A DNA stretch of 64,000 bases from a phage. Shown in pieces: positions 11,485 to 55,965 of this stretch (positions are counted from its first letter, which is position 1; every line of letters begins with the position of its first letter). Made by a program: the position numbers and the translations under genes. The notes beneath the pieces were generated by a model that had not been told where the DNA came from, ran no database searches, and worked only from the letters and a program-made list of their open reading frames with translations. Location: the sequence record PZ172995.1. One strand, written 5' to 3'.

Positions 11485-12660
11485 ATGGCAGTAGGTGAAA
11501 TTCAAATTAGTGCCTTGCCACAAGCGGCCTTACCAATTGATTTGAGTGATATCTTCCATCTTAAGCAAGGTGTTGAGGATAAAAGATGTACGCTTGAACA
11601 GTTGTTAGCACCTCACGCATCTTTGAGGAATAATCCTCATGGTGTAACTAAATCACAAGTAGGTCTTGATAATGTTATTAACTCTCTTCAATTAGTTGCA
11701 GCTAATAACTTGTCAGATATTGTAAATGTTGCTGAGGCAAGAGCAAATCTACAAATTATGTCGTCAGAGGAAGTGAATAACTTAATTCAGCAACATATTG
11801 ACGACAAAAGTAACCCACACAACACAACGAAAGCACAGGTTGGTTTAAGTAATGTTCAGAACTGGACAACATCCAACCTGTACAATGAAGATGCTGATAA
11901 ATATGCTACCGCGAGAGCAGTGAATAATCTATACAAAGCTATCCAAGCATCATATCCAGTGGGGACTATTCATCTGTCTGTTAACTCTGCTAACCCATCC
12001 ACTTACTTGCTTTGTGGAGGTACTTGGGAGTTGGTTTCTAAAGGTAGGGCGCTTGTTGGTTATGATACAGAAGCTAGACCTGTTGGTTCAACGTTCGGTT
12101 CTCAGACTGTAGCATTAACAAATAATAATTTACCAGCACACACCCACTCTATCTATTTAACAGGTGGTGGTCACACACACTCTGCAAGCGTATCTATCTC
12201 TAGTTTTGATTATGGTTCAAAAAGTACATCAACTTTTGATTACGGTACAAAAACGACTAATAGTGCTGGTGCTCACACTCACACGTTTAGCGGCACGACA
12301 AGTAATGATGGTAACCATAACCATAGAGTACCACTGAGAGGTAATGATAGAAGTGGGGGGGATGCTATTACTGCATCTGCTTATGCTGGGGTTAATAATA
12401 ATACGTATACTGATTTAGCAGGTGCTCACACCCATAGCTTCTCAGGCACAACTGCATCATCTGGTGCTCATAACCATACTGTTGCAATTGGTGCTCATAG
12501 CCACACTGTTAATATTGGTTCACACAGTCATACGGGCACTGTTACTGTCTCTAGCTCTGAACATACACACTCAGGAACATCTGGTTCTGTTGGTGGTGGT
12601 CAAGCTTTCAGTGTTGAGCAGCCATCTTTTGTCGTGTATGTATGGCAGAGAACAGCTTAA
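11485..12660 (+). CDS. tail fiber protein with C-terminal HxH-repeat domain
   Basis: 391 aa; C-terminal third has repeated H-T-H / H-N-H / H-S-H triplets (AHTHSFSGTT, GAHNHTVAIGAHSHTVNIGSHSHTG) and ends ...VWQRTA; RBS AGGAG. Confidence 0.65.
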   Translation: MAVGEIQISALPQAALPIDLSDIFHLKQGVEDKRCTLEQLLAPHASLRNNPHGVTKSQVGLDNVINSLQLVAANNLSDIVNVAEARANLQIMSSEEVNNLIQQHIDDKSNPHNTTKAQVGLSNVQNWTTSNLYNEDADKYATARAVNNLYKAIQASYPVGTIHLSVNSANPSTYLLCGGTWELVSKGRALVGYDTEARPVGSTFGSQTVALTNNNLPAHTHSIYLTGGGHTHSASVSISSFDYGSKSTSTFDYGTKTTNSAGAHTHTFSGTTSNDGNHNHRVPLRGNDRSGGDAITASAYAGVNNNTYTDLAGAHTHSFSGTTASSGAHNHTVAIGAHSHTVNIGSHSHTGTVTVSSSEHTHSGTSGSVGGGQAFSVEQPSFVVYVWQRTA

Positions 12661-12669
12661 TTTCTTTAC

Positions 12670-12690
12670 AGGGGCTTTGTAGCCCCTTTT
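12670..12690 (+). terminator. rho-independent terminator (weak U-tract)
   Basis: AGGGGCT-TTGT-AGCCCCT followed by TTTT between the two fiber genes. Confidence 0.45.
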
Positions 12691-12706
12691 AAGAGGAAAA
12701 TTCATA

Positions 12707-15073
12707 ATGGCAGATTACAAATTGAGTCAGTTAAACTCAATCGACACAATTCGTTCAGAAGACCTATTGCATATCAGAGTTAAGAAAAGACCTGAAATGT
12801 TGGGTGACGAAGACCGTAGAATGACCTATCAAGACTTCTTAGCTTCCTTCAAACTAGAAAGGTTTGTTCAGATTGCTGGGAGTAATATGACTGGGGATTT
12901 AGGTATTGTCAAGCTACTTTACGGTGGAAAGATTGTATTTGACCCTACAGGCTCTTCTGAGATTACTATTGGGGATGTTTTAAAGACTTTTAAACTTAAT
13001 GCAAGTGGCCTTAAACTCACTATTGCAGACTCTTCAAGGTCAGCAACTGTTTATCACACTCTGAATAAGCCAAGCCCTAATGAGCTTGGTATGAGAACTA
13101 ATGAAGAGAATGATGCAAGATATGCAAGGCTTGCTGCAAATAACATCTTTACATCCCAACAGACTATCCAAGCAAATGGTGAAGGTATTAGGTTAAAAAA
13201 CTCTTCTGAGAACTCACCGTTGTATATCAGAGGTCAGGATAGTGCTGGTGAGAATAGATGGTATATCGGTAATGGTTCAGGGGGTGATAATGTTACTATC
13301 CGCAACCACAAGACAGACTGTGAAGTTATTCTATCTAGTGTCGTGGCTATCAATAAAACATTAAGCATCACTGGTCAAGTCAAACCTTCAGATTTCTCTA
13401 ACTTAGATGCTAGATACTTCACTCAGACAGTTGCTAATCAGAGATTTGCACAGTTAGCTGGTAATAACACTTTTACAGGTGCTAATACATTTAGGACTAT
13501 GAGTATTATCTCAAATGCTGCTGCTATCACACTACAATGTGCATCAGCAAATGAATCCCTGTATCTACTTGCAAAAGATTATCAAGGTGGTAACTTATGG
13601 TATGTTGGTAAAGGTAGCTCAGGTGATGGTGTAACTATCTACAACTATACCACTAACACCTCTTTGGTCTTAGATGCTGCTGGAGTATCAGCAAATAAAA
13701 ATGTCAGAATCACTGGTCAAGTTCAACCTTCTGATTGGGCTAATATTGACTCTAGATACATTCCAGCAGGAACTTTGAGTAACCTTGCTAAACTGAGTGA
13801 TGTGAATACTTTTAGGTCTGCGCAAGTTATTAAACAGAATGGTCCAGTGTTGCAGCTAAGGAATACTATTCAGGACAGGGAGCTATATATCTCTGCTCAT
13901 AATGCTGATGATGTTAGAAAGTGGTACATCGGTAACGGGGATGCTAACCCAGCAAGGCTTATTATCCACAACGACAGAACTGCAACTACGATTTATATGC
14001 AAGACGATTTCTTGCTGAATAAAACAGTTAGAATCACTGGTCAAGTCCAACCTTCAGATTTCTCTAACTTAGATGCTAGATATTATACGCAATCTGTAGC
14101 AAACTCTAGGTACATGCTTGCTGTCTCTACTGGTTCTGGTACAGAGGCTGGTGATGGTGATGGTATTGCTTGGAATGCTAGGACTGGTCTGTATAATGTT
14201 ACAGGGAAATCTGGTTGTTCAACACAGCTAGTTTATCAAATGTTTATCGGTGGTGGCTCAACACCAACTGCACAGTTGAAGTTTAGCTACAGGAATGGTG
14301 GTGTCTGGTATAGGACAGCAAGAGATGGCTATGGATTTGAGAATAGCTGGGCTAAAATCTATACAGACCAAGATAAGCCAACCCCTTCAGATATCGGTGC
14401 ATACACTAAAGCTGAAACTGACCAGAAGATTGCAGAAGCAATTAGTGACTCTACAGACCTGAATAAAATCTATCCAGTAGGTATTGTAACGTGGTTTAAC
14501 AGTAATGTTAACCCTAATACAGCACTTCCTGGTCTAACTTGGACGTACCTGAATAATGGTGTTGGCAGAACTATTAGGATTGCAGCAGCAAATGGTTCAG
14601 ATGTTGCTACAACTGGTGGTTCAGACTCTGTAACGTTATCTGTTGGTAACTTACCTTCACACACACATAGTTTCTCTGCTACCACTTCATCATTTGATTA
14701 TGGTACTAAGACTTCTAGCACAACTGGTAACCATAACCACAACAGAGGTAACATGGAAATTTCTGGTGTGGTTGGTTGGTTCAGAAGTGATAACAGTGCA
14801 TTCTACACTGCGAGCGGTGCGTTTCAGATGGGTAGTTCTCAGGCTTCACATGGCTTCACAGGCTCTAACTTCACTTACGGTGCTGCTGCTGATTTCCACG
14901 CGTCAAGAACTTGGACAGGTGTAACCAACACAACTGGCAACCACGCGCACACTGTTGGTATTGGTGCTCACAGCCACACAGTTAGCGGTAACACAGGTGG
15001 TACTGGTTCTGGTTCAGCATTTAGCGTCACTAACCAGTTCTACAAGTTAATGGCTTGGGTAAGGACTGCTTAA
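12707..15073 (+). CDS. long tail fiber protein with internal tandem repeats and HxH C-terminal domain
   Basis: 788 aa; three ~100-aa repeats each ending ITGQV(K/Q)PSD(F/W)(S/A)N(L/I)D(A/S)RY; C-terminus has HxH repeats and ends ...AWVRTA, homologous to C-terminus of 11485..12660. Confidence 0.65.
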   Translation: MADYKLSQLNSIDTIRSEDLLHIRVKKRPEMLGDEDRRMTYQDFLASFKLERFVQIAGSNMTGDLGIVKLLYGGKIVFDPTGSSEITIGDVLKTFKLNASGLKLTIADSSRSATVYHTLNKPSPNELGMRTNEENDARYARLAANNIFTSQQTIQANGEGIRLKNSSENSPLYIRGQDSAGENRWYIGNGSGGDNVTIRNHKTDCEVILSSVVAINKTLSITGQVKPSDFSNLDARYFTQTVANQRFAQLAGNNTFTGANTFRTMSIISNAAAITLQCASANESLYLLAKDYQGGNLWYVGKGSSGDGVTIYNYTTNTSLVLDAAGVSANKNVRITGQVQPSDWANIDSRYIPAGTLSNLAKLSDVNTFRSAQVIKQNGPVLQLRNTIQDRELYISAHNADDVRKWYIGNGDANPARLIIHNDRTATTIYMQDDFLLNKTVRITGQVQPSDFSNLDARYYTQSVANSRYMLAVSTGSGTEAGDGDGIAWNARTGLYNVTGKSGCSTQLVYQMFIGGGSTPTAQLKFSYRNGGVWYRTARDGYGFENSWAKIYTDQDKPTPSDIGAYTKAETDQKIAEAISDSTDLNKIYPVGIVTWFNSNVNPNTALPGLTWTYLNNGVGRTIRIAAANGSDVATTGGSDSVTLSVGNLPSHTHSFSATTSSFDYGTKTSSTTGNHNHNRGNMEISGVVGWFRSDNSAFYTASGAFQMGSSQASHGFTGSNFTYGAAADFHASRTWTGVTNTTGNHAHTVGIGAHSHTVSGNTGGTGSGSAFSVTNQFYKLMAWVRTA
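13113..14110 (+). repeat. in-frame tandem triplication (~290-340 nt units) inside tail fiber gene
   Basis: Protein-level repeats NSPLYIRGQ...WYIGNG...ITGQVKPSDFSNLDARY / ESLYLLAK...WYVGKG...ITGQVQPSDWANIDSRY / RELYISAH...WYIGNG...ITGQVQPSDFSNLDARY; coordinates approximate. Confidence 0.6.
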
Positions 15074-19417: not shown

Positions 19418-19501
19418 CCTTATTAAAAGACCCTGTTTAAAGACCTTTTAAAAAGGTAAGTCTCATTTTAATGTAGCTGAGACTAACTACCCATACCTCA
19501 C
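19418..19501. repeat. conserved intergenic element, copy A (~85 nt)
   Basis: CCTTATTAAAAGACCCTGTTTAAAGACCTTTTAAAAAGG followed by a ~52-nt core (GTAAGTCTCATTTTAATGTAGCTGAGACTAACTACCCATACCTCAC) identical to 20842-20893; core carries inverted repeat AGTCTCA/TGAGACT; partial third copy at ~19557-19595. Confidence 0.7.
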
Positions 19502-19585
19502 CTTACCACGCCGAACAGTACCGGACTATACCAGACCATGCCGAACATTGCCGAGCCTTATTAAAAGACCCTCTTAAAGACCTTT

Positions 19586-19610
19586 TAAAAAGGAGCCTCC
19601 GAAGAGGCTA
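19586..19610 (-). terminator. rho-independent terminator on minus strand (UUCG loop)
   Basis: Minus-strand read: GTAGCCTC-TTCG-GAGGCTCC then TTTTT; directly downstream of stop of 19621..20061. Confidence 0.65.
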
Positions 19611-19620
19611 CCTAGTCAAC

Positions 19621-20061
19621 TTAGAAAGGTTTTCTACGTTGCTTGTTAATGTTAGCTTTCATAGCAGCTAAATGGTTTTGCTGTTCAATCAGTCGTGAAC
19701 GTTCTTGATGACTAAGTGCCATAGTGTTCACATTCTCAATTGCTTGAGTGGCTTGCTTTAAAGCACGACCAATCTTACCAGACATTTTACGTTTTGCAAT
19801 AGTTGCTTGATGTTTAGGTTCAACCACACGATAACCAACACCCATTGAAGCAACCAGATAAATCTTCTCTTCTTTAAGAAGCTTCTCAATAAACTTCTCA
19901 AGTCGGTTTAGACGTGTAAGTGCATAAGCCTTCATTTCATCTTCGTACTTAACAATGTCACCTTGATAAGTTGGCTTCGCAATACCTAAGAAGGTATCCA
20001 TCTCAGAATGTGATACAGTGTCACCGTAACTAAACTTTGCTGCTAATGCTTTTGTATTCAT
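19621..20061 (-). CDS. hypothetical protein (basic C-terminal half)
   Basis: 146 aa; no motif recognised; second gene of a two-gene unit bracketed by repeated intergenic elements. Confidence 0.45.
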   Translation of the reverse strand: MNTKALAAKFSYGDTVSHSEMDTFLGIAKPTYQGDIVKYEDEMKAYALTRLNRLEKFIEKLLKEEKIYLVASMGVGYRVVEPKHQATIAKRKMSGKIGRALKQATQAIENVNTMALSHQERSRLIEQQNHLAAMKANINKQRRKPF

Positions 20062-20063
20062 AA

Positions 20064-20669
<606 letters not shown>

Positions 20670-20808
20670 TTAGTTGATTGTTAAGTTGTTTGTAAAGAAC
20701 CCTCAACAGAAGACTCTTTAGAAACTTGGTAGATTTTTAACGTGGCTACTACCATCCACCCTTACCGCGACACACCGAACCAGACCTTACACCACCTTAC
20801 ACCACCCC

Positions 20809-20893
20809 ACCTCATTAAAAGACCCTCTTAAAAGGCCTTTTAAAAAGGTAAGTCTCATTTTAATGTAGCTGAGACTAACTACCCATACCTCAC
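20809..20893. repeat. conserved intergenic element, copy B (~85 nt)
   Basis: CCTCATTAAAAGACCCTCTTAAAAGGCCTTTTAAAAAGG plus core identical to copy A; flanked by A/C-rich (minus strand G/T-rich) CACC/CCGAAC-repeat sequence as in copy A. Confidence 0.7.
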
Positions 20894-21061
20894 ATCACCG
20901 CACCATACTACACCTGACACCACCTTACACCACCGCACCATACCTGACCGAGCTACACATCACTTAAAAACCCTCTTAGAAAGACTCTTAAGTGATGCTG
21001 GTGAGTACCTGTTGGTTTATGCTGCTCAGTATACTCACCAAATTTTCTATGTCAACAACTT

Positions 21062-27067: not shown

Positions 27068-27880
27068 ATGAATACTACTGTAGACCAGATGCTTGAAGAA
27101 AAAGGTATTGACGAAGCATTCTTAATCAATGCCGTAGAAAGCATGGCTATGATTCTTCGTGGAAACAACTACACAGAACAGTTTATGCCTGCAAGCTATA
27201 ACTTGCCTAAAGACAAGTCTGATAACGGTGCTTTTGCAGAACAGGTTAATATGATGCTGTGCGACAAAAAACTTGCCTTAGCATCTATCGTTGTAGGTGT
27301 TGATGCTCTTGCAGAGTTCATTTTTTATGAGATGCAGAAAAATGACTATATTGCCATGACCTCTGAAGAAAAAGACTCGCTACTGCTCTTAGATAATAAT
27401 GAGCTAGTTGACCTGTTAATTTCGTCAACGAGTGCTGTTATGGCTGCTCTTGAGAAGCGCATGGAAGAGAAGCTGTCACGATATGAAAAACTTGATTGGG
27501 GTGTAGAAGAGTTAAACCCACGAATCAAAGAGATTATCCAGCAAACTAAAGACTCTTTAGCAGAAGCTGTGAAAGATGATTCTGTAGCTGATGTAGAACC
27601 ACTACAGGTGAAGGTTGCTCTGATGATTCCAGCTATTTCTACAATGATGAATATCGTTGCACTAATCCAACTTTCTCAGATGTTGGGTGTGACCATTGAG
27701 TTCGTTGAGGAGATGACTGGTGGTGTCAGTATGCAAGCAATCAATGATGTTTTGGTAAACATTGGTGCTTCAATCATTGAAGAGAAGCTACGTATCAACT
27801 TCGGTGATGATTTTGTGAAGCAAATCTCAGCTATGGCTGAAAAAGAGCACTCACAAATTACTAGTGACCAACTGCACTAA
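27068..27880 (+). CDS. hypothetical acidic protein
   Basis: 270 aa, rich in D/E; coupled to upstream gene; followed by terminator. Confidence 0.45.
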   Translation: MNTTVDQMLEEKGIDEAFLINAVESMAMILRGNNYTEQFMPASYNLPKDKSDNGAFAEQVNMMLCDKKLALASIVVGVDALAEFIFYEMQKNDYIAMTSEEKDSLLLLDNNELVDLLISSTSAVMAALEKRMEEKLSRYEKLDWGVEELNPRIKEIIQQTKDSLAEAVKDDSVADVEPLQVKVALMIPAISTMMNIVALIQLSQMLGVTIEFVEEMTGGVSMQAINDVLVNIGASIIEEKLRINFGDDFVKQISAMAEKEHSQITSDQLH

Positions 27881-32266: not shown

Positions 32267-33307
32267 ATGGAGAAGTATACGCTAACAAAACTTCCCGATT
32301 CAGTTACACATGTCTTTATTGACTCTGACAGTATTGCCTATAAAGGTGCTTGTGTAGTTGAGAAAGCAAAATATAAATACGTCAATAAACTCACAGCAGA
32401 AGAATCTGAATCATTTGATAATGCAAAAGATGCTGCAAGATGGTTAGCAGACCAGAGAATCCTTGTAGAAGAGCTTGGCCTAGCATTTGATGAAGATGAA
32501 TGGGAAAGACAGACTTGGAAAGAAGCTAAGAGTGAAAAAGAAGCTATCATGGCTACTCAGCAGGTTCTTCAGGAATGGCTTAAGGTTGTTGGTAAAGAAA
32601 GAACTTGGGTAGGTTACTTAACAGAGAAAGGTGTGCATAAGCATAAAGACGTTAAAGGTCTTGAGCACCAATATCAAGGTAACCGTAAAGATGCTGTCAC
32701 ACCAACACACTTAGTTGCTTGTCGTGAATATCTCCTGTCAAGACCAGAGTTCAAACTCTTAAAGGGTGGCTTCGAAGCCGACTCAATCGTTATTGCTAAA
32801 GCTGAAAAGATGGGTAAGAAAGCTGCTCTTATGAGTATTGACAAAGACCTTCGACAAGCTGAAGGGACTTATTGTATTGATATGACTTATGAAAAGTCAC
32901 CACTAATTTTTATTGCTGACAATAATGTTGGTGATATCTGGGATTGCCCTATCAAATCAAAACCAAAAGCTGCAAAAACAGTTGGTGTAGGTTTTAAATT
33001 CTTGTGTTATCAGGCTGTTGCTGGAGATAATGCAGACAACTACTTCGGCCTTAAAGGTGCTGGTAAAGTAGCTGTGATGAATGCTTTAGAGGGTAAAGAG
33101 ACCTACAAAGAGTGTCTTGATGCTATCTATGAACTTTATGCTAAAAAAGATTCTTATACCTATGTATCATGGGATGGACAGACTGTTACCAAAACACCAT
33201 TAGAGTTAATGGAACAGCATTTCTGGATAGCATATCAAGAGAGAAATCCAAAAGATAATTTCTCTTTTAAGAAATATAATTGGGAGCCGTGTATGAATGA
33301 AGATTAA
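32267..33307 (+). CDS. 5'-3' exonuclease / flap endonuclease (FEN family)
   Basis: 346 aa; acidic clusters (VFIDSDSIAY, GFEADSIVIA, MSIDKDLRQ) and H3TH-like GLKGAGKVAV motif. Confidence 0.7.
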   Translation: MEKYTLTKLPDSVTHVFIDSDSIAYKGACVVEKAKYKYVNKLTAEESESFDNAKDAARWLADQRILVEELGLAFDEDEWERQTWKEAKSEKEAIMATQQVLQEWLKVVGKERTWVGYLTEKGVHKHKDVKGLEHQYQGNRKDAVTPTHLVACREYLLSRPEFKLLKGGFEADSIVIAKAEKMGKKAALMSIDKDLRQAEGTYCIDMTYEKSPLIFIADNNVGDIWDCPIKSKPKAAKTVGVGFKFLCYQAVAGDNADNYFGLKGAGKVAVMNALEGKETYKECLDAIYELYAKKDSYTYVSWDGQTVTKTPLELMEQHFWIAYQERNPKDNFSFKKYNWEPCMNED

Positions 33308-33794
33308 AGGATTTGGCAATTGTCCTACCTATGGTCATTGGGTATCTTTATGTGGGGAAGTTGACCCCACTAAACATTTTGGTTTTGTCTATTTAGTACA
33401 CTGTAAGAAGACCGGACAATATTATATCGGAAAGAAACAGCTTAATAGTGTGACCAAAAGAAAAGTTGCTGGCAAGACTCGGAAGAAGGTAGTCACTAAG
33501 GAGAGTGATTGGATGACTTATGAGACTTCTTCTGAGTATATTAAAAAAGATATTGAGAGCTTTGGGAAAGAATTTTTTGACTTTTACATTATCCAAACCT
33601 ACTACACGAAAGGTGGTCTAGTTTATGGTGAAGCAAACCTCCAACATAAATTCGATGTAATGACAAAAAGGATTGACTCTAAGCTCAGACTCTTCTACAA
33701 TGCCAATATTGCAGCAATTAAGTTTATCACTAAAGAAACTTATGAAGATGCTGAAAAAAGAATCCATAAGGTAATGAAAGCAAATTGTGCTTGA
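33297..33794 (+). CDS. GIY-YIG-like domain protein (possible homing-type endonuclease)
   Basis: 165 aa; FVYLVHCKKTGQYYIGKK matches GIY-(x9-11)-YIG spacing; weak. Confidence 0.4.
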   Translation: MKIKGFGNCPTYGHWVSLCGEVDPTKHFGFVYLVHCKKTGQYYIGKKQLNSVTKRKVAGKTRKKVVTKESDWMTYETSSEYIKKDIESFGKEFFDFYIIQTYYTKGGLVYGEANLQHKFDVMTKRIDSKLRLFYNANIAAIKFITKETYEDAEKRIHKVMKANCA

Positions 33795-33800
33795 TAACTA

Positions 33801-34046
33801 TTGAGAGAGAATAAAATGTTTAACAAAAGTAAAGCTGTGAGTCATGTAGCAAAGGTTGACAGCAAGATTGAAGAACTTGAGCGCATTCTTGCAAATGCCA
33901 GAGAGTCAATAATTAAAGAGGTTGAAGCTGTTGAATCTCAAATGCAGCACCTAATGCTTAAACGTCAAGAGTTACGTGAGCATCTGGAATATATTGAAAC
34001 ACGAGAGCTAAAAGTTAACAGATTTTTAAGGAGTCCGAATGTTTAA
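33801..34046 (+). CDS. small coiled-coil protein
   Basis: 81 aa, charged helical sequence. Confidence 0.4.
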   Translation: MRENKMFNKSKAVSHVAKVDSKIEELERILANARESIIKEVEAVESQMQHLMLKRQELREHLEYIETRELKVNRFLRSPNV

Positions 34047-34794
34047 CTCAAGAGAATCAGTAAAAAACTGGAATCTTCGTTGCGGAAACACCCAAAAGCA
34101 ACCTTACAGTGATGAGTATTGGGAATCTTTGAAATCCCAGTCTCTGTGTATGCTTGAAGAAGCAAAAGAGCTTGTAAAAGCAATTGAAGAGAAAGACCCC
34201 ATTGAGACATTGGATGCTCAGGCAGATTTGCAATATGTTCTTGACGGTCTAATTTATCTGTCACAACATGACCACAATGGCGCTATGGAAGCTGTTTGCC
34301 ATAATAATGACCTGAAGTACACAGACGACTATGAAGAAGCTTTAAAACGTCTTGCAGATATTGAGAAGCGTACTGGTCAAGAGTGTATTATCAGAATGTC
34401 AGTGGTTGATGGTAAAGAGTGGTATGCGATTGTCCGTGCAGCCGATGGGAAGATTATGAAGCAATCAAATCTCCCTAAAGTACAACTTGGTGAATACATT
34501 GTAGAACTTGAAAGCCAAGAACTTTTTGTGGTAGTATCTGAGACATGCGTTATCTGCAAAGGTATTGTATGTAGCTTAAAGGATTTGGGTGTAGATGGTT
34601 TTGTAGAAGTTAATCCAATTACCTCTAAAGCAGATAAAGATTTCTGTAAAGAGAATGGATTATGGATTGCAGATATTGTCTACTACGATGGTGAGCAGTT
34701 CCATGTAACCTCATACCCGAAACTGAATTATGATGCTAATAACCTAAAGTGCTGGTTAAAAGGGGTTGGTTATAATGGATTCACAGAACATTAA
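34039..34794 (+). CDS. MazG-like nucleotide pyrophosphohydrolase candidate
   Basis: 251 aa; N-terminal EEAKELVKAIEE ... LDAQADLQYVLDGL resembles MazG EExxE/ExxD helices; low confidence. Confidence 0.35.
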   Translation: MFNSRESVKNWNLRCGNTQKQPYSDEYWESLKSQSLCMLEEAKELVKAIEEKDPIETLDAQADLQYVLDGLIYLSQHDHNGAMEAVCHNNDLKYTDDYEEALKRLADIEKRTGQECIIRMSVVDGKEWYAIVRAADGKIMKQSNLPKVQLGEYIVELESQELFVVVSETCVICKGIVCSLKDLGVDGFVEVNPITSKADKDFCKENGLWIADIVYYDGEQFHVTSYPKLNYDANNLKCWLKGVGYNGFTEH

Positions 34795-43251: not shown

Positions 43252-43518
43252 ATGGGAATTTTAGGTAATATGAAAGCTGGCTTCTTGAAGGCACTGGCAA
43301 AAGCAGCAGCAATCATTTCTATGACTGGAAAGCAGGTTGGTGTAGATGCTTCAGCAGTTGCACAAGTTCTTGCAAGCCAAATTGAACAGCACCCTTACAT
43401 CTACGTAGGCCGTGGCAAAGGTGGTAAGAAACAAGCACATCGACCAACTGGTGCAGCAGCAATTAAACGTGCAGCTAAAAAAGCTAGTAACCGTAAACGT
43501 AACAAGAAGGCTAAATAA
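43252..43518 (+). CDS. small basic protein
   Basis: 88 aa, A/K-rich, C-terminal RKRNKKAK. Confidence 0.4.
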   Translation: MGILGNMKAGFLKALAKAAAIISMTGKQVGVDASAVAQVLASQIEQHPYIYVGRGKGGKKQAHRPTGAAAIKRAAKKASNRKRNKKAK

Positions 43519-43520
43519 TC

Positions 43521-43841
43521 ATGAGCAAAGTTTATAACACTCGTAAATTACAGATTTTCGTACTGTGCCAGTTTATGGCTAAAGAGTATAACTACTACTA
43601 TTGTGGTACAGGGTTCATTAGTGATAATGACGGCTCATATCTACCATTCAAAGAGGCTGTAAAACTCTTCAATGAAGAGAAAAGCTCTAAGAAAGATATT
43701 GAAAAGGTTAAGCTAACCTACAGCAAGAAAGATAAGAAGATTATCTGCCTAGATAACTTTGTCAAAGTTACTGGAGAAGCAAAAGAGTTTATGGATGAGA
43801 GTGAAATCTCATTCACAAGCATCTTGAAAGTAGCTCAGTAA
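43521..43841 (+). CDS. hypothetical protein
   Basis: 106 aa; followed by terminator. Confidence 0.4.
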   Translation: MSKVYNTRKLQIFVLCQFMAKEYNYYYCGTGFISDNDGSYLPFKEAVKLFNEEKSSKKDIEKVKLTYSKKDKKIICLDNFVKVTGEAKEFMDESEISFTSILKVAQ

Positions 43842-43853
43842 ACAGATACTATA

Positions 43854-43880
43854 AGGGGACTGTAAAGGTTCCCTTTTTTA
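43854..43880 (+). terminator. rho-independent terminator
   Basis: AGGGGAC...GTTCCCT stem (one G-U) followed by TTTTTTATTTT. Confidence 0.55.
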
Positions 43881-43893
43881 TTTTGGAGATAAT

Positions 43894-44409
43894 ATGTATC
43901 TGTCAAATCTGAAACGTTCTGCTGCAATGTCAGTTCTAAGACTCAGCTTCGATGAACGTCAAGAGTTCATTGACACCCACCAATATGACCCTTCTAACTC
44001 TAATCACATGATTCTCTGGAATCGTGACAGTACTCGTGAAAGAGCACTATTCCGCTATTATCCACACTACACTGTAGATAACTTGTATGAATGTTTTGTT
44101 GTGAAGAACACCATTGCAGTTCTCAATAAACTTTGCAGATACACAGGTAGTCAATCCTTCACATTAGGTCACCACAAGCCTGTTACAAAAGGTGGTGAAC
44201 ATCACTGCGCAAACTGGTTTATCCAAACTAAAGCTGATAACCAGAAGCAAGGAGATAGCCTTCTAAGCACTCCTAAGATGACCTATGAAGAGCAAGAGAA
44301 ATATATCAAAAATAATATGCCAGATGTGCTTGACAACAACTATACAGATTTGGCAATATCTCTCCTGTTGAAGTTCGAGACAGTTTATAGGGCAACTTAC
44401 AATGGCTAA
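43894..44409 (+). CDS. HNH endonuclease-like protein
   Basis: 171 aa; LGHHKPVTKGGEHHCANWFIQTKADNQKQGD resembles HNH core (HH ... N ... N/K). Confidence 0.45.
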   Translation: MYLSNLKRSAAMSVLRLSFDERQEFIDTHQYDPSNSNHMILWNRDSTRERALFRYYPHYTVDNLYECFVVKNTIAVLNKLCRYTGSQSFTLGHHKPVTKGGEHHCANWFIQTKADNQKQGDSLLSTPKMTYEEQEKYIKNNMPDVLDNNYTDLAISLLLKFETVYRATYNG

Positions 44410-44680
44410 AGAGAAGTGGGAGATTTTACCACTAGTCAGTGAGGGTGGTAACGGTTGTGAAATGTACATGATACGAGGTCATGTTCCAGAACCAATTGCA
44501 CTTGAGATGGTAAACAATTTTACAGATGGCTCCTACAAAGACTTAGGAGAACCAACTGTCAAGCAACAATGGGTTAAACCTGTACCAGACAGCACAGGTA
44601 ACTGTAGTGTACTTTATCACGTTGTAGACCCTGCAAAATGCAAATCTGCAATGGCAGTAACAAACGTAACTTTTGATTGA
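44402..44680 (+). CDS. hypothetical protein
   Basis: 92 aa, coupled to Prs-like gene. Confidence 0.4.
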   Translation: MAKEKWEILPLVSEGGNGCEMYMIRGHVPEPIALEMVNNFTDGSYKDLGEPTVKQQWVKPVPDSTGNCSVLYHVVDPAKCKSAMAVTNVTFD

Positions 44681-45573
44681 GAGAGAAAACTATGAAAACA
44701 TCTATCCGTGTTACAGTTCATTCACCAACTAAAGGGACTCATGAAGAAGAGTTTAACATCATCCAATTCCCTTCTGGTGAGATTGGTGGACACTTTTCAC
44801 CAGAGTTTGTTGATTTTACTGCCTATGCAGCATCATCTATCAACAATGTGATTATGATTGTAAAAGGCTACGACAAGGACACATTGTTTGCTGTGGCACT
44901 TGCTAAAGAGGCAATTGATGATTTGATTCCTCATGATTATGCCTTAAAGACTGTCATCTTTTACTACTTACCAAATGCACGATATGACCGTCACATGTTT
45001 AAAGGTGATGCAGCAGCTTTGAAGGTTTTTGCTAAACAGGTTAATGCAATGGGTTTTGGCGCGGTCTGTGCAGTTGACCCTCACAGTTATGTGCCAGATA
45101 ACCTGTTTAACTGCTTCCAAAGTATTCCTCAAAATGAAATTGCAGTCCACTATGCAAATGACCCACTGGTTGATTACTTAGTAGCCCCAGATGCAGGTGC
45201 TTCTAAGAAGATTGCAGAAACTGCTAAAGAGTTGGATAAACCATACATCACAATGTCTAAAGTACGTAACCTTAAGACTGGTGAAATTACTGGTATGCGA
45301 ATCCTTGATGATGTTGATTTGACCGATAAAACTGTTATGATTCTCGACGATATCTGTGATGGTGGTCGAACCTTCATAGAAGCAGCTAAACATCTTCGTG
45401 AAGCAGGTGCAAAACGTGTGGAACTCTATGTAACACATGGCATCTTCTCTAAAGGTGTTGAAAACCTTCTTGACAATGGTATTGACCACATCTACACTAC
45501 AAACTCTTTAGGGGAAGCTAAAGACCGTGGTTTAACACATTATGGTCAAGTTACTGTAGCAAACCTTGATTAA
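44677..45573 (+). CDS. ribose-phosphate pyrophosphokinase (Prs)-like protein; candidate ADPR pyrophosphokinase
   Basis: 298 aa; type I PRTase PRPP-binding loop VMILDDICDGGRT; N-terminal FPSGEIGG resembles Prs. Confidence 0.7.
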   Translation: MREKTMKTSIRVTVHSPTKGTHEEEFNIIQFPSGEIGGHFSPEFVDFTAYAASSINNVIMIVKGYDKDTLFAVALAKEAIDDLIPHDYALKTVIFYYLPNARYDRHMFKGDAAALKVFAKQVNAMGFGAVCAVDPHSYVPDNLFNCFQSIPQNEIAVHYANDPLVDYLVAPDAGASKKIAETAKELDKPYITMSKVRNLKTGEITGMRILDDVDLTDKTVMILDDICDGGRTFIEAAKHLREAGAKRVELYVTHGIFSKGVENLLDNGIDHIYTTNSLGEAKDRGLTHYGQVTVANLD

Positions 45574-45582
45574 AACTTTATA

Positions 45583-45605
45583 GGGGGCTTTTAAGCCCCA
45601 TTTTG
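45583..45605 (+). terminator. intergenic hairpin / weak terminator between Prs-like and NAMPT-like genes
   Basis: GGGGGC-TTTTAA-GCCCC followed by ATTTTG. Confidence 0.35.
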
Positions 45606-45619
45606 AGAGAGATTAAAAG

Positions 45620-47401
45620 ATGACTAAATCACTTTATGCAGTACCAGCAGGTTTAAACGCAGATGCTTACAAATCTGGTCACATTTACCAGTATCCTAGC
45701 GCAACAGAATACTTGATGTTCAACCTGACACCACGTAGTGATAAATGGTTTAACAGTCCTTTAGCAATTGACGGTGTGGTGGCTTTTGGTATTCAACGTT
45801 TTGTTAAAGACTACTTAATAGACCACTGGAACGCCACCTTCTTCGAACGTGACAAAGAAGAAGCAATTGACGAAATCTTAGAAGTCATGAACGGTGTTCT
45901 GGGTAAAGATGCTATTGGCCGTGAACATTGGGAAGCACTTCACGACTTAGGTTATCTACCAGTTGAAGTATACGCTGTAGAAGAAGGCACAGTTGTTCCT
46001 ATGCGTGTACCAATGATTGTCTTCCAGAACACTGTTTCAGGTTTCCATTGGGTAGCGGGGTATCTGGAAGATGCTTTCTCTGCTGAGATTTGGAAGGCTT
46101 GTACCATTGCAACTATTGCATTGCACTACAAACGTATCTGTAAGAAGTGGTCTGACCTTACTTGTGATAACGACTTACATTTGCCTTATCAGTGCCATGA
46201 CTTTGCTATGCGTGGTATGTCCGGCTTTACCGATGACGCATTTAACGCTGTAGGCCACTTAACCAGCTTTAAAGGAACTGATAGCTTCCCTGCTGTATAT
46301 ACAGCTAAACGCATCTATGGACAGTCCTACCCAATCTCTGATATTGGTAGCTCTGTACCAGCCACTGAGCACTCTGTAATGTGTGCAAACATTGCTTGGG
46401 AAGGTGGTAATGAGTTGATTGAAGAAGAAAGACGCTTTAAAGGTGAGTTACAGACCTTCCGTCGTTTCTTAACAGAAACTTACCCAACTGGTATTGCAAG
46501 TGTTGTTTCAGACACTTATAACTTTTGGAGAACTGTGTCAGAAATCTTACCAGCACTTCGTAAAGAGATTATGGAACGTGATGGCAAACTGGTCATTCGT
46601 CCTGACTCTGGCGACCCTGTACATATTGTCACAGGTTATAAAGCAATCCACTTAGAGTGTGCTAAAAAGGCTTATTACGAACACCTAAGCAAGCTGGAAG
46701 CCAGCGACACAATGCTGAATGCTGTTCTGAACATGAAGCTTGAAAACATCAACTATGGTATTGCTGGATGGCTACTGTCAGAAGGCTACGAAATGGTTGT
46801 TGACAGAGAAGACTTTGAAGTTGCTGATACAGTGCTGTTGAAAAATGCTTATATGGTTGGTTCTGCAAACGTTGTAACACGTCCTGTAGCAGAGATTGAT
46901 GGGGCTATTAAGACCCTGTATAACATCTTTGGAGGGACTATCAACTCTAAAGGTTTTAAGGTACTGGATGAGCACATTGGCCTTATTTATGGTGACTCTA
47001 TCACGTTGGAACGTGCAAACGAAATCCTGAAACGTTTGTATGAAATGGGTTTTGCAAGCTCTAACGTAGTGTTTGGTGTAGGTTCTTATACTTACCAGTA
47101 CATGACTCGTGACACCTTTGCATTTGCTGTCAAAGCAACTCTTGCAAGTATTGGTGGTAAAGAGATTATGCTTGCAAAAGACCCTAAAACAGATAGCGGT
47201 GTTAAGAAGTCTGCTTTTGGTGGTGTAGCACCCATGTGGGATGGTGATAAGCTGAAAGCTGTAGATGGCTATGGATTCCAGAGCTTTGCAGATGTGCTTG
47301 AACATCCAGCTTGTGCTTTACGTTTAGTCTTTAGTGACTCTGAGCAGTTCGGTTACACAACTCTTGGTGATATTCGAAATAATATTGACAAGCAACTTTA
47401 A
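45620..47401 (+). CDS. nicotinamide phosphoribosyltransferase (NAMPT/NadV)-like protein
   Basis: 593 aa; N-terminal LNADAYKSGH resembles NAMPT/NAPRTase family substrate-binding region; adjacent to Prs-like gene. Confidence 0.65.
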   Translation: MTKSLYAVPAGLNADAYKSGHIYQYPSATEYLMFNLTPRSDKWFNSPLAIDGVVAFGIQRFVKDYLIDHWNATFFERDKEEAIDEILEVMNGVLGKDAIGREHWEALHDLGYLPVEVYAVEEGTVVPMRVPMIVFQNTVSGFHWVAGYLEDAFSAEIWKACTIATIALHYKRICKKWSDLTCDNDLHLPYQCHDFAMRGMSGFTDDAFNAVGHLTSFKGTDSFPAVYTAKRIYGQSYPISDIGSSVPATEHSVMCANIAWEGGNELIEEERRFKGELQTFRRFLTETYPTGIASVVSDTYNFWRTVSEILPALRKEIMERDGKLVIRPDSGDPVHIVTGYKAIHLECAKKAYYEHLSKLEASDTMLNAVLNMKLENINYGIAGWLLSEGYEMVVDREDFEVADTVLLKNAYMVGSANVVTRPVAEIDGAIKTLYNIFGGTINSKGFKVLDEHIGLIYGDSITLERANEILKRLYEMGFASSNVVFGVGSYTYQYMTRDTFAFAVKATLASIGGKEIMLAKDPKTDSGVKKSAFGGVAPMWDGDKLKAVDGYGFQSFADVLEHPACALRLVFSDSEQFGYTTLGDIRNNIDKQL

Positions 47402-47415
47402 AAGTATATGATAAG

Positions 47416-47437
47416 AGGCTCCTACGGGAGCCTTTTT
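47416..47437 (+). terminator. rho-independent terminator
   Basis: AGGCTCC-TACG-GGAGCCT followed by TTTTT. Confidence 0.7.
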
Positions 47438-47454
47438 AATTTCTGGAGAAGATT

Positions 47455-47790
47455 ATGAAAATCAAAGAAATGAACATCAACATTGTCTTAGAAGAACGTT
47501 GGGAGAACATCAAGAAGCCTGAAAATGGTCATAAGTTCCTCAACAAAATCTTAGTGGCAGCTAAAGAAGAACTGACTGGCAAGGTTGCAGCAGCAATCAC
47601 AATAAAGGTGTGTGTAAAAGGTCTTCCAGACAATCACCAATTTGCACTTGACGAGTTTAAAGAAAGCTTCTACAATCCAAACAAACAGATGCTTGAAAGT
47701 AACTTTGCAGTATCTACAAGTATCGTTCATGACAGAAGCTTTATCCTTTACAAGAATATGAGAGGTGAGTCATGCAAGCATATTGGATAG
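47455..47790 (+). CDS. hypothetical protein
   Basis: 111 aa, RBS GGAGAAGA. Confidence 0.45.
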   Translation: MKIKEMNINIVLEERWENIKKPENGHKFLNKILVAAKEELTGKVAAAITIKVCVKGLPDNHQFALDEFKESFYNPNKQMLESNFAVSTSIVHDRSFILYKNMRGESCKHIG

Positions 47791-47948
47791 AAATTTTACT
47801 GTCACTTGGTAGTGTAGCAGTGTTCGTTTACCTTCTTTGCAAGTACTATGCAGAGCACAAAAAATGTGACTTCTGTGACGGAGAAGGTTATACAAGAGCA
47901 GGTTGTTGCCCTATGTGTGGCGGTTCTGGTAAAATGTTTAATAAGTAA
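47772..47948 (+). CDS. small membrane plus zinc-ribbon protein (58 aa), not in supplied ORF track
   Basis: ATG with RBS AGAGGTGA; hydrophobic N-terminus then CDFCDG...CCPMCGGSG. Confidence 0.4.
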   Translation: MQAYWIEILLSLGSVAVFVYLLCKYYAEHKKCDFCDGEGYTRAGCCPMCGGSGKMFNK

Positions 47949-47976
47949 TTTAACAGTAAACTAAGAGGAAAGTATT

Positions 47977-50343
47977 ATGCGCATGGTAAATGACCACGCA
48001 GAAGTGATTAAGAGTTCAACTTCTTTAGAGACGTCTCAAGCACAGATTACAATGACACCTGAAATGTTCAGCCTTTTGAGTTCTGGTGTATATACCTTTA
48101 AAGAAAGGGCAGTTATTCGTGAACTGTCATGTAACGCAGTAGATGCTCAGAAAGAAGCTGGAAAAGAGAACATCCCGTTCCATGTGCATTTACCTACTCG
48201 TTTTGAGCCTTACTTTGAAGTTCGTGATTTTGGAACTGGATTGACTCATGATAAAGTTATGAGTTTGTATCTAAATTACGGGGCTTCTACGAAGAATGAC
48301 TCTAATGACTACATTGGTGCAATGGGTATCGGCTCAAAATCCCCATTTGCAATTGCTCAGTCATTCACAGTATCTAGCTATGTTGATGGTGTTGTCAATA
48401 AGTACTCTGTTTACCTTGAGAATGGTATCCCTCAAGTAACTAAGTTGACCACTAACCCAACAAAAGAACCTAATGGTTTAGCTGTACGTGTAGCAGTTGC
48501 TGACCACCGTATTTCAAAGTTCTTTGAAGAAGCTGGTCATGTATACTCATACTTTGCTGTAAAACCAGAAAGTAATATCGAGTATGATGATGTATTAGCA
48601 GATATGAATGTCATTGCCCGTGAAGAAGGTGTTTATGATGCCATGATTCACAAACAAAGCTGGCGTTCTAGTGGTAACAGGACAGAGTTTAATGTGGTGA
48701 TGGGTAACATTGCCTATCCAGTGAACATGGAAGCATTACTTGGTGATGATTTCTTCAAAGTCTTACCAGAATTTTTCCGTAGGAGCGTAGACCTTGTAAA
48801 CATCTACATGCCTATTGGTTCAGTTGCTATTGCAGCTTCTCGTGAAGCATTGCAGATGAATGACACGACAAAAAATGTTATCATCGAGGCTACTAAAAAG
48901 ATAACTGAAGCAATTACAAAGGATGTTATCAAGAAAGTTAATAGTCAACCTACACTCATGGATGCTGCACAGGCTTATGCTGAGTTACGCTTGAACTCAC
49001 GAGAGATGTTTAATGCTGTGTGTCCAAAGCTAGAGTGGGGAGGCGTTAAGCTTGATTCTCTGGAAGAAGAATTACTAAACATTCGTCGTGGAATTATCTA
49101 CGCAGAAGATGGCTCAGTTATTTATGAACGTGATGGTAAAGGTAATATTAAGGTTGATAGGAACGGAAACAACATACCTAAAGTAGATTATCTTTATAAT
49201 CCAGTTGCTTATGTTAAGTTCAACTCTTTAGAAAGTAAGATTCGTGCAACAGCACTTTCCTACACTCAAGAGGCAAGTATGTTCAATATCTTTGGCGCAA
49301 TGCGTAAAAGTCAAATTGAGCAGTTTTTGTTTGTTATAAATGACCGTCGCAATAAAAATGGTACTGAGAAGACTGTAGGACGCAATCAGATTCTGCGTGG
49401 TGCATGTCGAGACTATGCCAGTGAGTCAAATCTGTTTCACAGATACAATGGTATTGTCTTTGTATTCTCGACTGAAAAAGAGTTAGACGACCTAATCAAT
49501 CTGCACAAACTTGATAAAAGCTTGTTAAAGATTGTGAAGATGTCTGATAAGGAACACCATTACCAGCGTAAAGAAACTGTAAGAGGTGTTGTAAAACTCT
49601 GGAAAGCTGTTCCAGCAGAAGGTGTAGCTTCATACAAAGAGGTGTCAGAAGACTTAGATACGATTGAAGAACCTCAGCTTTATATTAAGGCAGTAGGCGA
49701 CACAGTTGATGGTGAATGTTTTTGCTCATCTCCAGAAGATGTAGCTAAGTCAGTTGCCAATGTCATTGGAAAGACAGTCTATGTTTTCCGAAAAGCAAAT
49801 TGGAAAAAGATACCAGAAGACTGGATTGAAGTAGATGAGAAACTCTTGAACGACAGCTTAACTGATGTTCACTGGATTAATCATAACAGGTATATGACAC
49901 GTATCTATATGAATGGTGTCCTTGACCTTACAAGCAGTTGGATTATTGCCAGAAACTTTACGTTTAATAACAGGAAGATTTCTCGTGGCTATTGCTATTC
50001 ACGGGATACAAACAAAACTATCTTCTTAGAAGGTAATGAAGATGCTGTTGAGGCAATGTTTGGTAAAATCCAATACGTTGCTGCACCGTTTGCATACACT
50101 TACACTGTTAGTCGGTTGCAAACTTTGAAAGAATGCCTTGACAATGACACAAAGCTGTACAAGAAAATTAAGAAAGCTGGTGACCGTATGGTTATTAAGG
50201 TGACAAACTATCTTTCAAAAAGAAAACAAGAAAACTTCTTGCTTTCTCATTTAGATTGGAATAAAGTGTCACCCATCGAAGTGAGTAAGTTCTTAGGCTT
50301 TGATGTGAAGTGTGTTCCAGAAGGGACTACAATTTACGATTAA
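47977..50343 (+). CDS. rIIA: rIIA-like protein with GHKL-type ATPase domain
   Basis: 788 aa; N-box-like ELSCNAVDA, G1-like RDFGTGL, G2-like GAMGIGSKS; followed by rIIB-sized gene. Confidence 0.55.
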   Translation: MRMVNDHAEVIKSSTSLETSQAQITMTPEMFSLLSSGVYTFKERAVIRELSCNAVDAQKEAGKENIPFHVHLPTRFEPYFEVRDFGTGLTHDKVMSLYLNYGASTKNDSNDYIGAMGIGSKSPFAIAQSFTVSSYVDGVVNKYSVYLENGIPQVTKLTTNPTKEPNGLAVRVAVADHRISKFFEEAGHVYSYFAVKPESNIEYDDVLADMNVIAREEGVYDAMIHKQSWRSSGNRTEFNVVMGNIAYPVNMEALLGDDFFKVLPEFFRRSVDLVNIYMPIGSVAIAASREALQMNDTTKNVIIEATKKITEAITKDVIKKVNSQPTLMDAAQAYAELRLNSREMFNAVCPKLEWGGVKLDSLEEELLNIRRGIIYAEDGSVIYERDGKGNIKVDRNGNNIPKVDYLYNPVAYVKFNSLESKIRATALSYTQEASMFNIFGAMRKSQIEQFLFVINDRRNKNGTEKTVGRNQILRGACRDYASESNLFHRYNGIVFVFSTEKELDDLINLHKLDKSLLKIVKMSDKEHHYQRKETVRGVVKLWKAVPAEGVASYKEVSEDLDTIEEPQLYIKAVGDTVDGECFCSSPEDVAKSVANVIGKTVYVFRKANWKKIPEDWIEVDEKLLNDSLTDVHWINHNRYMTRIYMNGVLDLTSSWIIARNFTFNNRKISRGYCYSRDTNKTIFLEGNEDAVEAMFGKIQYVAAPFAYTYTVSRLQTLKECLDNDTKLYKKIKKAGDRMVIKVTNYLSKRKQENFLLSHLDWNKVSPIEVSKFLGFDVKCVPEGTTIYD

Positions 50344-55179: not shown

Positions 55180-55965
55180 ATGGGTATTGTAAAAATCATC
55201 AATGGGGATATCTTCTCCGCATTTGATAAAGGTAAGTTTGATATTATTGGTCACGGTTGCAACTGTATGAATTTAATGGGCGCAGGTATCGCTGACAAGA
55301 TTTCTAAACTTTACCCAAAAGCATATGAGACTGATACAGAAGTCTATCTGTATGCAGGTGGTATAGGTCACAAACCATGTGAAAATTTACTAGGCAATTT
55401 CTCTGTAGCACGTTTAGAACAAGGCCGTATAGCTAACCTTTACACTCAGCTTAAGACTGGTAAAGATGCCCGATACAGTGCTTTAGAGTCATCTTTGAAA
55501 CAACTTAACAGATACTGTGAAGTCAATCAGTTGAAGAAAGTTGGGTTACCTATGATTGGTGCAGGTATCGGTGGACTAGACTCTCAAGCCGTCACAGTCA
55601 TCATTAATCAGGTGATGAAGAGTGTAGATGTGTATCTGTATGTCTATGAAGGAGAGATGTACCACAAGTTACGCTCAGGTTGGAAGAACTACTGTGAACC
55701 AGAATACTTTGCTGGTGTAGTAGTGTTCACTAATGATGTAGTTACCCTCTTCAGACGAAGAAAAGGCAAGATACATCAAAGTAACCCTCCGGTTGAAAAG
55801 ATGTCTCTAAGTAACGCTCTAGTTACCCACCTGTCGAAGAGCAATCACAGAATTGCAGTAACATTTGGCAGTGATGCAGATACATATATCTATGCAAGAA
55901 CTGATGAGGATGTTGAGGAAATTTTCTCTTCACCGGAAGTAACCTTCTTAGACGCAAAGAACTAA
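55180..55965 (+). CDS. macrodomain protein (TARG1/DarG-like ADP-ribose binding/hydrolase fold)
   Basis: 261 aa; N-terminal IINGDIF...DIIGHGCNCMNLMGAGIA and later GLPMIGAGIGGLD match TARG1-type macrodomain motifs. Confidence 0.6.
   Translation: MGIVKIINGDIFSAFDKGKFDIIGHGCNCMNLMGAGIADKISKLYPKAYETDTEVYLYAGGIGHKPCENLLGNFSVARLEQGRIANLYTQLKTGKDARYSALESSLKQLNRYCEVNQLKKVGLPMIGAGIGGLDSQAVTVIINQVMKSVDVYLYVYEGEMYHKLRSGWKNYCEPEYFAGVVVFTNDVVTLFRRRKGKIHQSNPPVEKMSLSNALVTHLSKSNHRIAVTFGSDADTYIYARTDEDVEEIFSSPEVTFLDAKN

Follow-up and report, generated by a model that had tools for sequence, protein, structure and literature searches.

The 64,000-nucleotide stretch of phage DNA analysed here (sequence record PZ172995.1, hereafter the window) carries two adjacent genes, adps and namat, which very probably constitute a NARP1 operon, a two-gene pathway for rebuilding nicotinamide adenine dinucleotide (NAD+), and which, judged from sequence and synteny, are the orthologs of genes 79-80 of phage Bas63, the type example of this system. 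The initial annotation of this DNA had proposed a NARP1-type module at this locus rather than plain salvage, and the proposal is borne out by the syntenic Bas63 ortholog, by the Namat signature of the second protein and by the absence of a gene for a nicotinamide mononucleotide (NMN) adenylyltransferase (NMNAT). Its implied novelty is not: because this operon was described, upon its discovery, in a phage belonging to the same genus, the system is known and published, the window holds an ordinary member of it, and what we report is a re-identification.

In the proposed mechanism, host defence systems (SIR2-HerA, Thoeris, DSR1/2, SEFIR and others) split NAD+ into ADP-ribose (ADPR) and nicotinamide, upon which Adps, using ATP, would pyrophosphorylate the terminal ribose of ADPR to give ADPR pyrophosphate (ADPR-PP), and Namat would exchange the pyrophosphate of ADPR-PP for nicotinamide, yielding NAD+ directly, so that neither NMN as an intermediate nor an NMNAT is involved. 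NARP1 was discovered in Bas63 (genes 79-80, bas63_0079-0080), where deletion of the two genes raised the sensitivity of the phage to SIR2-HerA ~20-fold and aggravated the depletion of NAD+, where ADPR-PP appeared in vivo only when wild-type Bas63 was combined with the defence system, and where the effect was independent of the host genes pncC and nadR (Osterman et al., bioRxiv 10.1101/2024.02.11.579819). The in vitro chemistry was established with purified enzymes of phage SpbetaL1, and the counter-defence phenotype with Bas63, Fado and SBSphiJ knock-ins. For the window, computation established the orthology and synteny of the genes, the conservation of their catalytic and specificity residues, the anatomy of the operon and, in the genomes searched, the lack of an NMNAT.

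The window derives from a Felix O1-like phage (Felixounavirus) and is colinear with positions 8015-71566 of Bas63 (JohannRWettstein, MZ501086), at ~77-95% nucleotide identity per aligned block, its nearest complete genome being that of HMD-P10. The gene order is the same in the window and in Bas63, running from nrdG through small open reading frames (ORFs) to adps and namat, and then to rIIA/rIIB. A megablast search with the adps-namat locus matched 259 phage records, nearly every one from a Felix O1-like phage of Escherichia, Salmonella, Shigella or Citrobacter, and 239 of the 259 cover at least 80% of the query. Adjacency of the two genes is the rule for the clade, 97% of Adps-clade genes adjoining a namat gene.

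The two ORFs are intact and lie on the same strand at the coordinates that the initial annotation had given them (Table 1), separated by a 46-bp spacer and followed by a single terminator 3' of namat. The Prs-like protein of 298 amino acids that it described exists as the maximal ORF, which opens on a TTG codon; the protein itself is likely 293 amino acids long, starting from the ATG at 44692 (MKTSIRV...), because the Bas63 and VpaE1 orthologs, annotated as 882 nt, agree with this start and a GAGAGAGA motif precedes it. The same Shine-Dalgarno-like GAGAGAGA is found upstream of the namat ATG. Fold energies supported both the short hairpin and the strong terminator noted at the outset, with the spacer hairpin reaching -11.4 kcal/mol for the centroid and -12.7 kcal/mol for the minimum free energy structure (z = -2.1), and the terminator -16.6 kcal/mol (z = -4.1), a stability equalled in 0 of 200 shuffles. 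The spacer hairpin, which only four T residues follow, may be a weak attenuator or a stabiliser of the upstream message, which is speculation on our part. An Rfam search of positions 43500-48000 gave no match above threshold. Compared with Bas63, both genes show purifying selection, with nonsynonymous (dN) and synonymous (dS) divergences of 0.007 and 0.268 for Namat and an overall dN/dS of 0.16 for Adps.

The product of namat is assigned to the Nampt family by profile searches (Pfam NAPRTase/NAMPT_N; phrog_448, E 8.6e-202) and carries the LNADAYKSGH motif, reported earlier for this protein, at residues 12-21. It is identical to Bas63 gp80 at 583 of 593 positions (98%) without a gap, and none of the ten substitutions falls at a mapped ligand contact. 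Its top matches among solved structures were the two entries of SpbetaL1 Namat (9W5W, E 8.5e-128; 9W5X, E 9e-128), as compared to E 6.7e-52 for Xanthomonas Nampt and ~1e-40 for human NAMPT.

Namats are distinguished from Nampts by a selectivity clamp, which consists of a helix (SCH) of the pattern GS-X-phi-X-phi-X-phi-TRD, where X is aromatic, and a variable loop (SCL) that provides a stacking residue, whereas Nampts are devoid of the aromatic adenine-clamp residues (PMC12774641). At the position of the helix, the window Namat reads GSYTYQYMTRD, SpbetaL1 Namat GSFTYQYNTRD, and Xanthomonas Nampt, which served as a negative control, GGALLQKVDRD. Y490 and Y494 of the window protein, the aromatic residues of the motif (positions 3 and 7), correspond to F392 and Y396 of SpbetaL1 Namat, which stack on the adenine (PMC12774641). 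As for the loop, the stacking residue is an arginine at position 3, or the fourth residue if the third is lysine or tyrosine, and Bas63 was modelled as the latter case (PMC12774641); by analogy, W43 of the K42-W43 pair would be the stacking residue in the window Namat, residues 1-60 being those of Bas63 except for I22V. When the contacts of SpbetaL1 Namat with NAD+ (to its nicotinamide, NMN and AMP portions) were mapped by alignment, each fell on an identical or conservative residue in the window protein, namely D15, Y17, F195, R198, D221, A248, H251, R327 and D329, and further along G458, D459, G488, S489, Y490, Y494, T496, R497 and D498. The Nampt-like catalytic core is kept among them, F195, R198, D221, R327, D329 and H251 corresponding to F189, R192, D215, R306, D308 and the catalytic histidine of SpbetaL1. 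The third-best structure match of Namat, 9KE8/9KEO (E 1.4e-103), labelled 'nicotinamide phosphoribosyltransferase', has the motif GAQTYQRNTRD, a non-aromatic clamp, and its best phage match is 64.7%; we considered 9KE8 as a phage Nampt negative control and did not use it as evidence, since its origin is not established.

Support for placing the Prs-like protein in the Adps clade is thinner than that for Namat. Its family assignment is clear (Pfam Pribosyltran/Pribosyl_synth; phrog_619, E 6.6e-97), and its translation contains the phosphoribosyl-binding loop VMILDDICDGGRT quoted in the initial annotation, in which D219, D220, G225 and T227 (293-residue numbering) are invariant across the Adps proteins of the window, Bas63, SpbetaL1 and Fado as well as E. 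coli Prs. Adps and Bas63 gp79 are of equal length, 293 amino acids, and align without gaps, with 228 of the 293 residues identical (78%); gp79 was itself among the queries by which the clade was defined. By BLASTP, the window protein scored 100 bits against SpbetaL1 Adps, 72 against Fado Adps and 62 against E. coli Prs. In a multiple alignment, the ATP/ribose-binding motifs FPxGE, RxDR, PHS and DD..G.T are conserved and K190 (K195 in 298-residue numbering) is aligned to the catalytic K162 of SpbetaL1 Adps, whose replacement by alanine abolished activity and NAD+ synthesis (Osterman et al., bioRxiv 10.1101/2024.02.11.579819). Among the NCBIfam models, Adps passes only the broad subfamily model TIGR01251 (120.2 bits, cut-off 113) and falls short of every Prs equivalog cut-off by at least 190 bits, the best being NF002095 with 103.6 bits against 296. 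The profile and structure comparison that had been suggested for the two proteins thus came out on the side of NARP1, with Namat nearest to 9W5W/9W5X and Adps below the Prs equivalog cut-offs.

The initial annotation had seen no NMNAT gene in the window and had called for a search in the rest of the genome. Six-frame ORFs were searched for NMNAT by tblastn, phmmer and a profile hidden Markov model in three sets, the window itself, complete Bas63 and whatever part of HMD-P10 the window does not cover, and none was found, the best match having an E value of 0.095 and fewer than 6 bits; Pfam scans of 20 otherwise unannotated ORFs revealed no NMNAT either. The five queries were E. coli NadR, E. 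coli NadD and the NadR-type proteins of the KVP40-like phage PVA23, a T5-like phage and ICP1, and the profile combined the four that are of NadR type. As a positive control, a leave-one-out profile recovered the NMNAT of the T5-like phage with an E value of 1.7e-93.

These findings bear on two other explanations of the locus. Under plain salvage, the first enzyme would make phosphoribosyl pyrophosphate (PRPP) from ribose-5-phosphate, the second would combine PRPP with nicotinamide to form NMN, and the host would complete the synthesis of NAD+ through NadR or PncC/NadD. The names attached to these genes speak for it, as the Pfam, PHROG and NCBIfam labels and nearly all of the ~260 GenBank records read Prs or phosphoribosyltransferase, in line with the usual annotation (PRPP synthetase plus a NadV-type enzyme) that had been anticipated. 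However, SpbetaL1 Adps gave no product with ribose-5-phosphate in a Prs assay (Figure 2D of that study), and Namat supplied with PRPP and ADPR-PP together formed NAD+ only (bioRxiv 10.1101/2024.02.11.579819). Moreover, the window Namat bears the adenine-clamp motif that Nampts lack, Adps misses the Prs equivalog cut-offs by the wide margin given above, and plain salvage has already been largely refuted for the Bas63 ortholog; we consider it very unlikely here. In a NARP2-type pathway, exemplified by Vibrio phage KVP40, a Nampt makes NMN from PRPP and the phage has an NMNAT gene at another place in its genome. This would agree with the membership of the second protein in the Nampt family, and NadR-type NMNAT genes are indeed common in other phages (773 records). 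Yet the searches of the window, Bas63 and the remainder of HMD-P10, in which the control was recovered, turned up no NMNAT, although sequence profiles could miss one of a novel fold; a Prs homolog adjoins the gene here while NARP2 has none, and the clamp helix carries a Namat-type motif, which leaves this explanation with a negligible probability.

None of the evidence contradicts the assignment of the locus to NARP1, though there are four caveats. Bas63 Adps purified poorly (bioRxiv 10.1101/2024.02.11.579819), and the chemistry attributed to Felix O1-like phages would thus be read from Bas63 metabolomics and genetics together with in vitro work on Bacillus-phage homologs that are 28-48% identical. 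In the multiple alignment, Adps is 28% identical to SpbetaL1 Adps, barely above the 26% to E. coli Prs, and our literature search found no Adps structure and no residue-level determinant of specificity for ADPR versus ribose-5-phosphate; what carries the Adps assignment is therefore its orthology to Bas63 gp79, together with the neighbouring namat gene. The function predicted for Adps is, in addition, carried over from Bas63 across an allele difference of ~180 codons. Finally, Namat also makes NMN from PRPP in vitro (bioRxiv 10.1101/2024.02.11.579819; PMC12774641), and the window enzyme may have some salvage activity alongside the rebuilding of NAD+. With identities of 78% and 98%, respectively, we nonetheless expect the Adps and Namat alleles of this phage to act like their published orthologs.

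The allele difference in Adps is confined to its N-terminal part. The 5' ~540 nt of adps are 64-83% identical to Bas63 at the nucleotide level, whereas the flanks are 88-99% identical, and correspondingly the first ~180 codons encode a segment of 58-75% amino acid identity, as compared to 96% in the C-terminal 113 residues. Over codons 1-120 dS is saturated (3.1-4.1) and dN/dS is 0.05-0.09, while dS over codons 181-293 is 0.56. Positive selection as the source of this divergence was ruled out because of the low dN/dS combined with saturated dS; rather, the sequences indicate that the 5' half is an ancient allele swapped in by recombination and held under purifying selection. In the megablast search, the alignment with some groups of relatives begins only at query position 69 or 291, and at least three classes of adps 5' alleles can be discerned by sequence among Felix O1-like relatives.

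Namat, in turn, contains segments that are absent from the SpbetaL1 and Fado enzymes in the alignment, namely a 77-residue insertion and a smaller extra segment at residues 258-274. A tblastn search with residues 343-428 found the insertion to be restricted to Ounavirinae, with 254 phage records that are Felix O1-like by organism name and among the matches listed, the most distant relatives being 40-50% identical and no match falling outside Felix O1-like phages. Pfam identified no domain in the insertion, and the Namat structure paper (PMC12774641) does not mention it. A single-sequence AlphaFold2 prediction of the window Namat gave an unusable model (mean predicted local distance difference test score 33, predicted template modelling score 0.20).

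Beyond the operon itself, the genome holds a candidate accessory gene of the kind described for NARP1-AP. The aRES defence converts NAD+ to ADPR-1''-phosphate, which NARP1 cannot use, and some phages place a Macro-domain phosphatase, Adpp, inside the operon, an arrangement that defines NARP1-AP (bioRxiv 10.64898/2026.01.28.702374). The published screen covered two genes on either side of NARP1 and arrived at an estimate of 15% for the share of NARP1 phages with the extended pathway; Table S1 of that preprint contains Pakpunavirus phages and no Felix-like phages (bioRxiv 10.64898/2026.01.28.702374). Within two genes of the window operon there is no Macro-domain gene: the two upstream neighbours have no Pfam domain, and the two downstream neighbours, of 111 and 58 amino acids, are too short for a macro domain of ~150 amino acids, the first of them being phrog_4262, to which no function is assigned. 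The genome does encode a Macro-domain protein of the Adpp family (Poa1p-like), whose gene follows namat at a distance of 7.8 kb (15 genes), past rIIA/rIIB and a polynucleotide kinase gene, and 97% identical to Bas63 gp95, a 'putative phosphatase'.

It is conceivable, if on balance doubtful, that this unlinked protein extends NARP1 by acting as Adpp, converting ADPR-1''-phosphate to ADPR for use by Adps and Namat, in what would be a split NARP1-AP. An approximate yeast Poa1p sequence served as bait only to locate macro loci in phages, and the loci were then verified by the annotation they carry and by Table S1 of the preprint. The window protein matches the characterised Adpp of Vibrio phage Gary (BLASTP E 7e-14) and, more closely, an operon-embedded macro protein of Pakpunavirus (E 8e-22); it retains 13 of 13 family-invariant residues, and its scores against the Macro and DarG profiles are indistinguishable from those of Gary Adpp. 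The match to the DarG model was set aside as a sign of a DNA de-ADP-ribosylase role, being uninformative because a proven Adpp matches this model equally well. The gene is, furthermore, placed where the published two-gene screen would miss it. Against an Adpp role stand, however, the distance of 15 genes with rIIA/rIIB and the polynucleotide kinase gene in between and the wide occurrence of the family, which counts 2,855 records, some of them from T-even-type phages of 165-171 kb. One member, from a Vibrio schitovirus, was rejected as an operon-embedded Adpp, as it adjoins rIIA/rIIB and has no NARP1 genes nearby, and the macro family is therefore not specific to NARP1. The window protein also stands slightly nearer to its T-even-type counterparts (84-95 bits) than to Gary Adpp (54 bits), deacylases of the TARG1/OARD1 type are its closest relatives of solved structure, and it bears an unexplained C-terminal extension of ~100 amino acids with no match in PDB or Pfam. 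If a split NARP1-AP were nevertheless true, the 15% estimate would be an undercount, screens based on operon proximity would underestimate the number of phages that overcome aRES, anti-defence pathways need not sit in contiguous operons, and the C-terminal extension and the 77-residue Namat insertion would be lineage-specific adaptations.

For NARP1 itself, the consequence is a correction of annotation and not a discovery, as nearly all of the GenBank records still name the locus ribose-phosphate pyrophosphokinase and nicotinamide/nicotinate phosphoribosyltransferase. Since the two genes very probably encode Adps and Namat of a counter-defence pathway, their presence predicts resistance to NAD+ depletion of the SIR2-HerA, Thoeris, DSR and SEFIR type, which could help in selecting Felix O1-like phages for typing or therapy.

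Table 1. Positions of the NARP1 operon, its elements and neighbouring or related features in the window
Feature	Position	Strand	Description
Prs-like ORF, mechanical maximal	44677..45573	+	298 aa from TTG
adps, predicted ADPR-PP synthetase, Prs-family pyrophosphokinase	44692..45573	+	293 aa from ATG 44692
Divergent 5' segment of adps, codons 1-180	44692..45231	+	Old allele gained by recombination
Phosphoribosyl-binding loop of Adps, type I phosphoribosyltransferase-type	45334..45372	+	VMILDDICDGGRT, read from translation
Intergenic hairpin	45584..45599	+	GGGGCT-TTTA-AGCCCC, then ATTTTG; inside 46-bp spacer
namat, predicted nicotinamide ADPR-transferase, Nampt family	45620..47401	+	593 aa
Namat SCL stacking pair K42-W43	45743..45748	+	Identical to Bas63
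Namat insertion, 77 aa	46670..46900	+	Spans residues 351-427; aligned Namats of SpbetaL1 and Fado lack it
Namat SCH signature GSYTYQYMTRD	47081..47113	+	Residues 488-498; fits GS-X-phi1-X-phi2-X-phi3-TRD
Intrinsic terminator	47413..47436	+	10-bp GC-rich stem and T-run; ends operon
Small ORF	43894-44409	+	171 aa, phrog_3500, weak HNH-like similarity
Small ORF	44402-44680	+	92 aa, phrog_4726; in 231 records, Felix O1-like phages only
Macro-domain protein, candidate accessory, outside core operon	55180..55965	+	261 aa; Pfam Macro E 2.1e-7; phrog_335 family

The spacer between adps and namat is a homing-endonuclease insertion site, an HNH gene lying exactly there in VpaE1 (1506-1997 of locus L014), where its annotation notes similarity to an HNH endonuclease of Felix O1. 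An HNH gene is likewise found inside the locus match in several more relatives, including Mushroom, skuden and dune. Unlike VpaE1, the window has an empty site with a hairpin (45574-45619). On the other side, the two small ORFs upstream abut adps with overlaps of 8 nt and 4 nt and are preceded by a hairpin resembling a terminator (43853-43875), so that NARP1 and the two ORFs may share a transcript. As accessory genes of NARP1 they were not retained, for neither has a known domain and the 92-residue ORF, the one searched, is restricted to this phage lineage, and nothing can be inferred about such a role.

Elsewhere in the window, colinearity with Bas63 is broken at 19500-21060 and 40783, and in Bas63 at 27503-27802 and 47828-48568. 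A segment of ~1.5 kb, comprising the ORFs 19621-20061 and 20064-20666, neither of which has a Pfam domain, has no Bas63 counterpart, and the homing endonuclease gp68 that interrupts nrdD in Bas63 is absent from the window. The tail-fibre region at 12462-14728 (+), which includes a 788-residue ORF (12707-15073), is the most divergent long segment relative to Bas63 (77% identity), consistent with host-range variation. A 165-residue SegE-like GIY-YIG homing endonuclease (Pfam PF19835, E 9.4e-28) is encoded at 33297-33794 (+), directly 3' of an exonuclease gene, and a 251-residue MazG-like nucleotide pyrophosphohydrolase at 34039-34794 (+) (Pfam PRA-PH, E 6.6e-6; phrog_2144, E 1.4e-101), for which the Bas63 annotation says only hypothetical. 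Enzymes of the MazG type in phages have been connected with the manipulation of nucleotide pools or alarmones.

Among the known systems, NARP1 of Bas63 is the closest to the window operon. The two share genus, position, gene order, a 293-residue Adps and a 593-residue Namat with its 77-residue insertion, SCL and SCH; the terminators are identical, and the spacer hairpins have the same stem with a different loop. They differ in the first ~180 codons of adps, which are another allele in the window, and in the ten Namat substitutions. With NARP1 of the Bacillus phage SpbetaL1, whose Namat has been solved bound to nicotinamide (9W5X) and to NAD+ (9W5W) (NAR 2026, PMC12774641), the window has in common the two-gene adps-namat operon, the catalytic lysine of Adps, and the contact residues and SCH signature of Namat. 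Identity to it is, however, only 28-35% for Adps and 46% for Namat, the window Namat has the extra segments 258-274 and 351-427, and where the SCL of SpbetaL1 stacks via Arg40 the window Namat has a Lys-Trp pair instead. In addition, adps and namat overlap by one base in SpbetaL1, whereas in the window they are 46 bp apart with a hairpin in between.

NARP1-AP, as found in Vibrio phage Gary and in Pakpunavirus operons, has the same core of Adps and Namat, and the window genome encodes an Adpp homolog as well; yet the macro gene of the window lies 7.8 kb and 15 genes downstream and not in the operon, and its product has an extra C-terminal region of ~100 amino acids. NARP2 of KVP40, which comprises the Nampt NadV and the bifunctional NMNAT NatV, resembles the window system in that a phage enzyme of the Nampt family sustains NAD+ during infection, and differs from it by its NMNAT, where the window has instead a Prs-family partner and a Namat-type clamp. 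Lastly, the cellular enzymes Prs (E. coli b1207) and Nampt (Xanthomonas 7YQO, human 2GVG) share with the window proteins their folds and their catalytic chemistry, in which a pyrophosphoryl group is transferred from ATP to C1 of a ribose and nicotinamide then displaces the pyrophosphate. The window Adps is 26-30% identical to E. coli Prs and lies below all Prs equivalog cut-offs, and whereas the cellular enzymes act on ribose-5-phosphate and PRPP, those of NARP1 act on ADPR and ADPR-PP (bioRxiv 10.1101/2024.02.11.579819).

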